From Octopus vulgaris (taxonomy: Eukaryota): 64,000 bases of DNA. Each line of letters begins with the position of its first letter. Positions within the stretch are counted from its first letter, which is position 1. The translations under genes were made by a program, and so were the position numbers. Under the pieces are notes generated by a model. The model had not been told where the DNA came from. It made no database searches and saw only the letters and a program-made list of their open reading frames with translations. Below, one piece after another: positions 35,530-50,466 of this stretch. The stretch spans positions 31,062,001 to 31,126,000 of the forward strand of contig OX597823.1 of the NCBI GenBank assembly GCA_951406725.2, given 5' to 3'.

Positions 35530-35752
35530 TTTCTTTTATTCTTTTGCTTGTTTCAGTCATTTGACTGCGGCCATGCACGACACCGCCTTTAGTCGAACAA
35601 ATCGATCCCACGACATGTTCTTCGTAAGCTTAGTACTTATTCTATTGGTCTGTTTTACCGAACCGCTAAGTTACGGGGACGTAAACACACCAGCATCGGT
35701 TGTCAAGCGATGATGGGGGACACACACAATGACACATACACAAATACACACA

Positions 35753-35830
<78 letters not shown>

Positions 35831-36430
35831 CTCTTTACTCTTTTACTTATTTCAGTCATTTGACTGCGGCCATGCTGGAGCACCACCTTTAGTCGAGCAT
35901 ATCGACCCCGGGACTTATTCTTCGTAAGCCTAGTACTTAGTCTATCGGTCTCTTTTGCCGAACCGCTAAGTTACAGGGACATTAACACACCAGCATCGGT
36001 TGTTAAGCAATGCTAGGAGGACAAACATACACACACTTATATATACATATATACGACGGGCTTCTTCAGTTTCCGTCTACCAAATCCACTCGGCTCGAGT
36101 AGAAAACACTTGCCCAAGGTGCCACGCAATGGGACCGAACCCGGAGCCATGTGGTTGGGAAGCAAGCATTCACTTTTCATCTCTTCCTTGATTTTTCGAG
36201 GGGACGATCTGATGAAAATTGCTTAATTTCGATCCTTTAATTCGAGATTACTGTCTGTTGTTTTACATGCTTCAGTTATTGGACTGCGGCCACGCGAGAG
36301 CACAGTCTTCATGTGTTGTAGCCGAATGCATCGACACCAGTCCTTGTTATTAAATTGGTCCCTTTTGCCGAACTGTTAAGTTACAAGGACGTAAACAATC
36401 TAACACCTGTTGGTGTGAGGAATAAACACA
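35530..36430 (-). mobile_element. Cluster of SINE family 1 copies
   Basis: Three tail segments and one head segment. Confidence 0.85.
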
Positions 36431-36568
36431 AACACAAACATATATGTGTGTGTGCATGAGTATATATATATATATGCAAACATAAAAACATACAAATACA
36501 CACACAAACACACATACATATATACATTTGTGTAACTTTGTCCGTTTTTTCGTCTTTGTTTTTGTATA

Positions 36569-36704
36569 CATTCGTTGCTTTCTTCCAAGAAATCTAAAGC
36601 TTAGTTTTTCCTTGGGGCTACCCAAATTCAAGCAATCTCAAGAATAATCAGCCGAAATTGCGAGGATAATTTGGTGCTTGACTGAGGATAGAGGGCTTCG
36701 AATG
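36569..36704 (+). ncRNA. Non-circularly permuted hammerhead-like motif, family A copy 2 (intact core)
   Basis: II GGCU 36616-19; III-distal CCAAAUU; GCAA 36632-35; UC 36636-37; I UCAAG 36638-42; II' AGCC; GAAA 36654-57; UUGC; AAUUUGG; I' CUUGA 36677-81; CUGAGGA 36682-88. P0 is CAUUCG../..CGAAUG. Host element is about 36515-36810. Confidence 0.78.
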
Positions 36705-36803
36705 ACCCGTCCTTGTTTTCTTTGTATCGTCTATCTGGATGTTTTGTTGTCTCTTTTTTTATCACCTAGCTGTCCGGATGTTTTGCGTTCTTGTCCCATT
36801 TTG

Positions 36804-36844
<41 letters not shown>

Positions 36845-37136
36845 TAGATATAGATATAGATATATATACATATACACATACATACGTATACACACTGAAG
36901 ACGGACCTCCTTCAGCTTCCGTCCTCCAAATTCCCCCACACGTATGCAATGCTCGCGCGCGTATGTGTATATATTCATGTATATATGTATGTATATGTGT
37001 GTGTAATTTTGTGTTTGTGTTCGCATTCATCATGCCACTTTATAACCAGCAGTTGTCTATTTACGTCCTCGTAACTTAGCGGTTCGGCAACAACTGATCG
37101 ATAGAATAAGAGCCAGAGTTTAAAACTAAGTAAGAA

Positions 37137-37975
37137 GAGGGTCAGTCGATTATATCAACCCCAGTACGCAACTGGTACTTAATTTATTGACCCCGAAAGG
37201 ATGAAAAGCAAAGTTGACCTCGGCGGAATTTGAACTCAGAACGTAGAGATAGACGAAATACCGCTAAATATTTCGTCCGGCGCGCTAACGATTCCGCCAG
37301 CTCACCGCCTTTGTTGCTAAATTAATAATCTTTTCTACTCTAGGCACAAGGCCGAAATTCTGGGGGAGGGGGCCAGTCGATTAGATCGACCTCAGTACGC
37401 AACTGGTACTGAATTTATCGACCCCGAAAGTATGAAAGGCAAAGTCGACCTTGGCAGAATTTGAACTCAGAACGTATCGGCTGACGAAATACCGCTAAGC
37501 ATTTCACGCCTTTGTTTCTAAATTAATAATGATGAAGAATGTGTCACAAAAACACACGCATACACACAAGCATTCACATTCCTCCTTTTTACGCGCACAC
37601 ACATATACTCACACAAAGTTGAAGCGCTGTTTTTATTTTTGTTTCACCGTTGACTTTTTACCCTCCCACTTCCATCGGTGGATCACCCCGTCCTTTCTCA
37701 TTCATATGTTGTGACGGAGAAATATACAAAATTATAGATTATAAGGCGGCGAGCTGGCAGAAACGTTAGCACGTCAGGCGAAATGCTTAGTGGTAATTCG
37801 TCTGCCGTTAAATTCTGAGTTCAAATTTCGCCGATGTCGACTTTGCTTTTCATCCTTTCAGGGTAAATTAAATAAGTACCAGTTACGCATTGGGGTCGAT
37901 TTAATCGAATTAATCCCTTTGTCTGTTCTTGTTTGTCCCGTCTATGTTTAGCCCCCGTTGGGCAATAAAGAAATA
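37137..37975. mobile_element. SINE family 2 cluster (two minus copies, one plus copy)
   Basis: 37137-37310 (-), 37328-37506 (-), 37743-37975 (+). Other copies lie at about 1728-1940, 7522-7650, 11855-12058, 18318-18470, 26195-26408 and 44743-44933. Confidence 0.88.
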
Positions 37976-48324: not shown

Positions 48325-48373
<49 letters not shown>

Positions 48374-49048
48374 TTGTGTATTATATATATATAATCGCAC
48401 TATATATATATAGAACAAAAGCGCAATAGAGGACAATAAAACATTCGGACAGATAGACGATATATAGGCGGACAGGAGAAACAACAATTAGAAGTACAGG
48501 CAAAAAAAGACGGGTAATTCGTATTTACGTCCCCGTAATTTAGCGGTTCGGCAAAAGAGTAATAATAGAATAAGTAGTAGGCTTACAAAGAATAAGTCCT
48601 GGGGTCGATCTGCATAGCCGCAGTCAAATGACTGAAACAAGTAAAAGAATAAAAGAATATATATACATATATATATATAGAAAGGTAGATAGATAGATAG
48701 ACACAGACAGACAGACATAGATAAATAGATAGATAGATAGATAGACAGACAGACTGACAGACAGATAAATAGCTAGCTGGCTAGCTCGTTAGATAGATAG
48801 ATAGATAGATAGTTAGATAAATAGATAGACTGACAGACAGATAAACAGGTAGATCGATAGATAGACAGATAGAGAGAGAGAGAGATACATACATACATAC
48901 ACACATACATACATACATACATACATAAACAGATGTTTTATATATGGATATAAACTATGCATATACACGTACACACTCCAACACACATATCTATGTACAC
49001 ACACGCACATACATATATGTGTGTGTGTTTATATGTATATGTATATGT

Positions 49049-50047: not shown

Positions 50048-50139
<92 letters not shown>

Positions 50140-50234
50140 CAAATGGGACAAGAACGCAAAATATCCTGACAAGTGATACAAAAATGGGACAGCAAAACAA
50201 CTAGATAGACGATACAAAGAAAATAAGGACAGAT

Positions 50235-50376
50235 CATTCGGAGTTTTCTTTCCTCGGTCGAGTTCCAGATTATCTTTACAATTTCGGCTGGTTATATTCG
50301 AGATTGCTCCAACTGGCCAGCGTCAAGGAAAAACTAAGTTAAGGGCATTAGATTCCTTGGAAGAAAGCAGCGGATG
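50235..50376 (-). ncRNA. Non-circularly permuted hammerhead-like motif, family A copy 3 (core U4C)
   Basis: Same layout as copies 1 and 2. Stem I is UCGA/UCGA here versus UCAA/UUGA in copy 2, a compensatory change. Core reads CCGAGGA; GAAA and AUC are retained. Host element is about 50140-50415. Confidence 0.7.
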
Positions 50377-50466
50377 TATACGAAAACAGGAGGGAAAAAA
50401 TACGGAGAATGTTACACATACATACATACATACATACATACATACATACATACATACATACATACA

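Follow-up and report, generated by a model that had tools for sequence, protein, structure and literature searches.

Family A, a repeat family of the Octopus vulgaris genome, is quite probably a non-coding Penelope-like retroelement whose RNA is predicted to form a self-cleaving hammerhead with its blocks in the order S-G-C and a core interrupted between A9 and G10.1, the source elements likely cutting their RNA at the site that this fold predicts. Three copies lie within the window, the stretch of 64,000 nucleotides that was analysed (contig OX597823.1, positions 31,062,001 to 31,126,000, assembly GCA_951406725.2), and all three are dead, decayed products. Copy 1 (about 23150..23455, minus strand) belongs to a younger subfamily, is about 97% identical to its best relatives and bears a private mismatch in stem I. 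Copy 2 (36527..36806, plus strand) is a decayed, 5'-truncated, non-autonomous Penelope-like unit that ends in (TA)n, and copy 3 (50138..50418, minus strand), from a subfamily with G-C in stem I, is decayed as well, carrying a U4C change in the core and a private A-C mismatch at the fifth pair of stem I. The 3' part of family A has a fourth match in the window, more divergent (71%), at 48331-48521 on the minus strand. Other short interspersed repeats, which recur beside many loci, flank copy 2 at 35560-36400 and 37040-37520.

The arrangement of the motif can be followed along the plus strand of copy 2. The 5' strand of P0 (36569..36584) pairs with its 3' strand at 36689-36704, the two P0 helices being 94% and 80% paired, and leads into the hairpin P1 (36585..36615), which has a 7-nt deletion in this copy and ends directly before the 5' strand of stem II (36616..36620). 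This strand starts with G10.1, lies upstream of the core and has lost its fifth pair in copy 2. It is followed by the 5' strand of distal stem III together with the non-bulged strand of a predicted kink-turn (36622..36631), where both G of the G-G-A consensus are changed, and by block S (36632..36642), comprising a stem III strand, U16.1 (36636), C17 (36637) and the 3' strand of stem I, with the predicted scissile bond of this copy at 36637/36638. Block G (36649..36661) holds the 3' strand of stem II ending in C11.1, then GAAA and the other stem III strand, and the segment of the predicted kink-turn bulge (36662..36674) consists of 3 variable nucleotides, an invariant GA, a U and the 3' strand of distal stem III. 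Block C (36677..36688) is made up of the 5' strand of stem I and CUGANGA, with no stem II strand after A9; the 3' strand of P0 (36689..36704) begins directly after that base. At 36793..36806 the fixed 3' end of the unit is joined to (TA)n, and the 20-mer from this end has 6,768 exact matches across the 2.8 Gb assembly.

The structure of family A is a real, selected RNA structure. It was assessed on an alignment of 260 copies, a few of which may be one locus counted twice; 242 of them fall into 13 subfamilies of 3 or more members, and 18, including copy 2 of the window, stand outside these. Across the 13 subfamily consensuses, stems I and III are each paired in 65/65 cells, these figures being those obtained after the register was corrected in two subfamilies whose stem III is longer by one pair. 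On the consensus tree, stem I shows 6 double changes and stem III 5, against 0.9 and 0.3 expected, and random re-pairing reached the observed number in 0/20,000 trials for either stem. The hammerhead core of CUGANGA, GAAA and UH is conserved in every one of the 13 consensuses, CUGA, GA, GAAA, U16.1 and C11.1 being invariant, while N7, N17 and the linkers vary between subfamilies and H17 is C or A. The full structure model is 90.6% paired on 41 distinct real copies and falls to 26-46% with slid partners. In uncurated columns, stem II has 2 double changes (p 0.06) and distal stem III 3 (p 0.12), neither of them significant. The minimum-energy fold of one copy from the youngest subfamily includes P0, P1 and the upstream stem II (z -3.1), and RNAalifold, on its own, recovers P1 and stem I only, missing the pseudoknotted helices. 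This last outcome would suit the view that common descent and chance produced the covariation in a repeat that evolved neutrally, as would the finding that two of the three examples put forward in the original prediction are private mutations. The tree-based counts for stems I and III, the slid-partner controls and the recurrence of the same wiring in sequence-unrelated families make that view scarcely credible, however, and leave a selected structure as the preferred reading.

The original prediction had been drawn from the three window copies, in which all the strings that it quoted are found, and had read their differences as the pattern expected of source elements under structural selection. 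Its compensatory A-U to G-C change in stem I is borne out and is not private, the third pair being G-C in 36/41 members of the subfamily that includes copy 3, against A-U in 27/29 and 37/39 members of two others. Core position 7, described there as free, does vary (A, G or U between subfamilies), but the CCGAGGA offered as an instance is a U4-to-C change at a conserved core position, seen in 3/41 copies of copy 3's subfamily, and represents decay. Distal stem III, which was said to vary while staying mostly paired, gives a similarly divided result: the CCAAAUU/AAUUUGG of copy 2 is private, with both sides changed in 1/260 copies, the 5' side alone in 5 others and the 3' side alone in 1, whereas a change between AGAUU/AAUCU and (A/G)GAUC/GAUCC is real at the level of consensuses. 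Privacy of the change, which together with a lack of covariation in the consensuses had been named as counting against compensation, was thus found for the copy 2 distal example and for CCGAGGA and not for stem I, so that the prediction held in its conclusion while some of the changes cited for it were decay. The upstream partner of stem II, the open core, the kink-turn and the peak of 5' ends described below do not figure in it. The caution that three copies are too few for statistics was apt, CYGANGA occurs in the window at chance frequency (39 vs 33 expected), and the subfamily consensuses from many copies that had been suggested in its place carry a structural signal far above chance. Structural selection on the source elements is accordingly upheld by the consensus covariation, with two of the three examples set aside as private; the core still decays inside subfamilies, at 2.8% vs 4.3% at other non-CpG sites, a pattern to be expected of selection that acted mainly on the source elements.

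In family A the cleavage site comes first, GAAA second and CUGANGA third, which is the block order of type SGC. The position of stem II is unusual. Over the 41 distinct real copies an upstream stem II is 91% paired, with changes on both sides in 3/5 pairs, whereas a standard stem II after A9 was rejected, its pairing (13%) being equal to that of shuffles. The partner strand is located 37-39 nt before G12 in 13/13 subfamilies, ahead of the extended stem III. When curated registers are used, which were picked by the analyst family by family, the upstream stem II is Watson-Crick in 64/65 consensus cells, one family needing one bulge; four of the five pairs change type and G10.1-C11.1 is fixed. 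Because the 5' strand of stem II lies upstream and not after A9, the backbone does not link A9 to G10.1: A9 runs into P0, the other P0 strand ends at the hairpin P1, and P1 ends at G10.1. The family A fold is the SGC fold opened inside block C.

This places the motif outside the established classes. The nested, circularly permuted order of types I, II and III is absent, the order being S-G-C, and the uninterrupted block C and the helix joining stems I and II, which define type SGC in the strict sense, are absent as well. Stem II does not directly follow A9, as it does in a hammerhead, and G10.1 is supplied by the upstream strand; stems I and III do flank the core and covary. Family A thus falls outside types I-III and strict SGC but most likely works as a hammerhead. 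An Rfam scan of the 64-kb window gave no match at gathering score, and a search of the open-access literature returned no hammerhead without an A9-G10.1 link and no match to the split-core wiring. A reading as type III or minimal type I, by way of a GAA after block C, was rejected because that GAA sits in P0 and the covariation of stem III points to the upstream GAAA.

It is very unlikely that the RNA cuts through an ordinary fold instead, be it one with a downstream stem II after a short insertion, one with no stem II or one in which tandem units act as a dimer. Five bases after A9, a stretch of 4 nt complementary to the 3' strand of stem II occurs in some subfamilies, but this complement is missing from the subfamily of copy 3 and is paired within P0 in others, and neither the shuffle-level pairing of the standard register nor the covarying upstream partner, 37-39 nt before G12 in all 13 subfamilies, agrees with a downstream stem II. 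A dimer might be expected from the occurrence of family A units in tandem and from the description of Penelope hammerheads as dimers in passages of PMC6765202, and the sequence is compatible with the same pairs forming between two molecules; stem III, however, is long and not palindromic, which argues against it. The split core with its upstream stem II remains the preferred reading.

Kink-turns have a consensus of a 3-nt bulge followed by G-A, opposed by G-A, and then U-G or U-U. In 12/13 subfamilies of family A, a 3-nt bulge of variable sequence, a GA that is fixed and another GA opposite it stand between stem III and its distal extension, the bulge letters varying freely and the GA staying fixed across subfamilies as in the kink-turn sequence pattern. 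The youngest subfamily departs from this, with U at the kink-turn position G2n and a bulge of 4 nt. Given this match to the consensus, we infer a kink-turn between stem III and the distal helix, which in the model would bend the extended stem III. Folding it back in this way would bring stems I, II and distal III together at their outer ends, with linkers of about 1, 2-3 and 5-6 nt, those by which the distal helix would reach stems I and II being just 1-3 nt long, and this meeting would replace the usual contact between loop I and loop II. To our knowledge, kink-turns are not known from hammerheads, and a literature search for a kink-turn in hammerheads found no relevant paper.

Family A units are about 700-860 nt long, pyrimidine-rich and show no evident ORF or reverse transcriptase match. 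Their 3' end is fixed and lies in a (TA)n microsatellite, their 5' ends are truncated to varying extents, and partial tandems and inverted pieces from the 5' side occur, features that match the Penelope-like hallmarks described in the passages of PMC8557442 on such elements. Judged by these features, family A is a non-coding Penelope-like passenger that has been recently active, copies of the youngest subfamily being 99-100% identical and occurring in arrays of up to 6 units. Such arrays fit an RNA circle or an uncut multimer. Non-LTR retrozymes carry a type-I hammerhead in each unit, and the motif in family A units is not of type I. The pattern GAAA, 21-27 nt, CUGANGA has 14,063 matches in the genome, compared with 301 for the reversed control. 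In the units of three loci (L032, L035 and L130), a small hairpin, its loop of the GAAA type, is kept across subfamilies at about 170-200 nt ahead of the cleavage site. One tandem (L464, G000:C1:183958000-183960300), in which the upstream piece has the core of another subfamily and the downstream anchor is of the youngest subfamily, is a possible template switch or recombinant. A search of RNA records with a query holding only about 120 nt of family A gave no RNA record among the matches listed; contigs of runs X9, X11, X16 and X17 (organisms B-E) cover the motif, such contigs being unable to show ends, strand or expression.

Where the insertions begin offers a view of the RNA that was copied. 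In the youngest subfamily, 25/66 insertion 5' ends lie at 0..+19 of the predicted scissile bond, with about 1.6 expected, and 7/66 fall exactly at 0 (0.07 expected), one of these having the core of another subfamily; one further insertion with its 5' end at about -19, added by hand, makes the first figure 25/67. The rate of 5' ends is 0.018 per base in this peak vs about 0.001 elsewhere, and from +20 to +79 it is at background. In a mixed sample, 23/95 5' ends are at the predicted bond or up to 19 nt after it and 2 are in the 40 nt before; this sample is made up of 96 consecutive anchors among the matches listed, of which 1 was unaligned, one locus was counted twice and one had an internal deletion. 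Genome-wide, (TA)4 junctions on the minus strand number 73 before, 362 at and 29 after the predicted site, the three junction anchors covering different subfamilies, and unequally. The 5' ends are scattered across roughly 20 nt, with a preference for TA microhomology that shapes their positions inside the peak, and TA-containing bases just upstream of the site are not enriched for 5' ends in the youngest subfamily. Also in that subfamily, 26 read-throughs of the predicted site were counted, so that cutting would be incomplete or the template circular.

The peak of 5' ends may be taken as genomic signs of cutting. A real fold that makes no cut in vivo would have to explain the peak as an internal transcription start or a stall of the reverse transcriptase, with the structure serving to bind a protein. 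Penelope pseudo-LTRs do carry promoters, according to passages of PMC6765202, a transcription start at the same base is compatible with the DNA, and both the spread of the 5' ends and the many templates that were read through sit well with this explanation. For a Penelope element of the anole, the relevant passages of PMC11167929 state that insertion in vitro did not depend on cleavage by the ribozyme and that no reads ended at the site, so that ribozyme activity was dispensable there. Yet the peak starts at the very bond that had been predicted independently from the structure, the 3' edges of the helices (+20..+79) show none of the excess that stalling would leave, and the catalytic letters are all invariant in the 13 subfamilies and in unrelated families. 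An uncut template is therefore unlikely, and cutting at the predicted bond is favoured.

A link to the Naiad elements was looked into because the methods passage on half-cores in Craig et al. 2021 (PMC8557442), where the octopus Naiad consensus is flagged HHR_half_core, suggested one; the same paper, in the passages at hand, reports Naiads to be without canonical hammerheads. By eye, 4/6 complete Naiad 3' ends in two parts of its supplement, that of the octopus Naiad among them, have the same wiring, with the same succession of upstream stem II, distal III, stems I and III and core, and apart from the core no likeness in primary sequence between family A and this Naiad tail was seen there by eye. 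The Naiad motif has 448 matches in the octopus assembly. Stems I and III were kept at 6/19 loci tested, with the upstream stem II present in 6/6 of these and the standard stem II in 0/6; loci retrieved with a loose pattern kept stems I and III in 11/30 cases, and 9/11 of these have the upstream stem II, two sequence-unrelated families included. Those two high-copy families with split-core wiring, represented by L493, L494 and L507 and by L503 and L511, are unrelated in sequence to family A, and many of their copies start between the S and G blocks. Two Naiad-motif copies (L489/L490) start exactly at the predicted cleavage site, where they meet (TA)n and show TA microhomology.

Copies with the Naiad motif are 73-89% identical to each other and old, in contrast to the youngest subfamily of family A. 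No ORF motifs were present in the 20 copies examined of the 448 matches, and a back-translated pattern of Naiad protein motifs had 0 matches in the assembly. As to an autonomous partner, none of the 35 GIY-YIG matches examined, out of 148, adjoins family A, and most of them are Neptune-like; reverse transcriptase remnants near family A copies were rejected as a partner, being separate insertions. One locus (L430) has a GIY-YIG domain of a Penelope type other than Neptune-like. Four loci (L140:2209 and, on the minus strand, L141, L138 and L049) hold Penelope elements of the Neptune-like kind, in some of which a 781-aa ORF is intact; the elements end in a minimal type-I-like hammerhead whose core is the variant UGAUAA and whose 4-nt stem III is palindromic.

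Taken together, a reverse transcriptase of the Penelope type, probably Naiad-type, would be supplied in trans and would prime at the AU-rich 3' end of family A RNA from nicked (TA)n. Copying back to a cut RNA end would produce short copies, and reading through uncut or circular RNA would produce tandem arrays. A wider proposal, held with only slightly better than even confidence, is that Naiads and their non-coding passengers share a seventh natural hammerhead wiring, an SGC core open at A9/G10.1, with a four-way junction to close it and a kink-turn to brace it, that this hammerhead cuts as a monomer in vivo, the cut being recorded by thousands of 5' junctions, and that the arrays are copies of RNA circles. 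If true, a hammerhead that is not circularly permuted would be present over ten thousand times in the genome of an animal, beyond the six orders thought possible, and the backbone link between A9 and G10.1 would be dispensable. It would also explain why descriptor searches called Naiads hammerhead-free, and the pile-up of 5' ends at the predicted bond would bear directly on the question of template cutting by Penelope ribozymes in vivo.

Minimal hammerheads of type I from Penelope-like elements and from non-LTR retrozymes were reportedly described by Cervera in 2014 and by Lunse in 2017. Family A shares with them, as portrayed in passages of PMC6765202 and bioRxiv 10.64898/2026.07.22.740005, a hammerhead located close to the 3' end of the Penelope-type repeat, non-coding tandem units and probable mobilisation in trans. 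In the same passages those hammerheads are of type I, function as dimers and have a stem III that is short and palindromic, whereas the family A motif is not circularly permuted and has long stems. Naiad, as characterised in parts of PMC8557442, resembles family A in its (TA)n targets and its tandem and inverted insertions, with the difference that family A has no ORF. Type SGC is an order named by Eckert et al. 2023 (PMC10085705), who, in passages of that paper, found no SGC RNA in the genomes of known organisms and assume that block C cannot be interrupted. In common with HRIMA-1 and its variants as presented there, family A has the order of cleavage site, GAAA and CUGANGA, a pseudoknotted core and a short linker that joins the 3' strand of stem I to the 3' strand of stem II. 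In the type-SGC RNAs of those passages, however, block C is continuous with stem II, whereas in family A the 5' strand of stem II is upstream, P0 and P1 are inserted at A9/G10.1, and the extended stem III with its predicted kink-turn stands in for the I-II helix.
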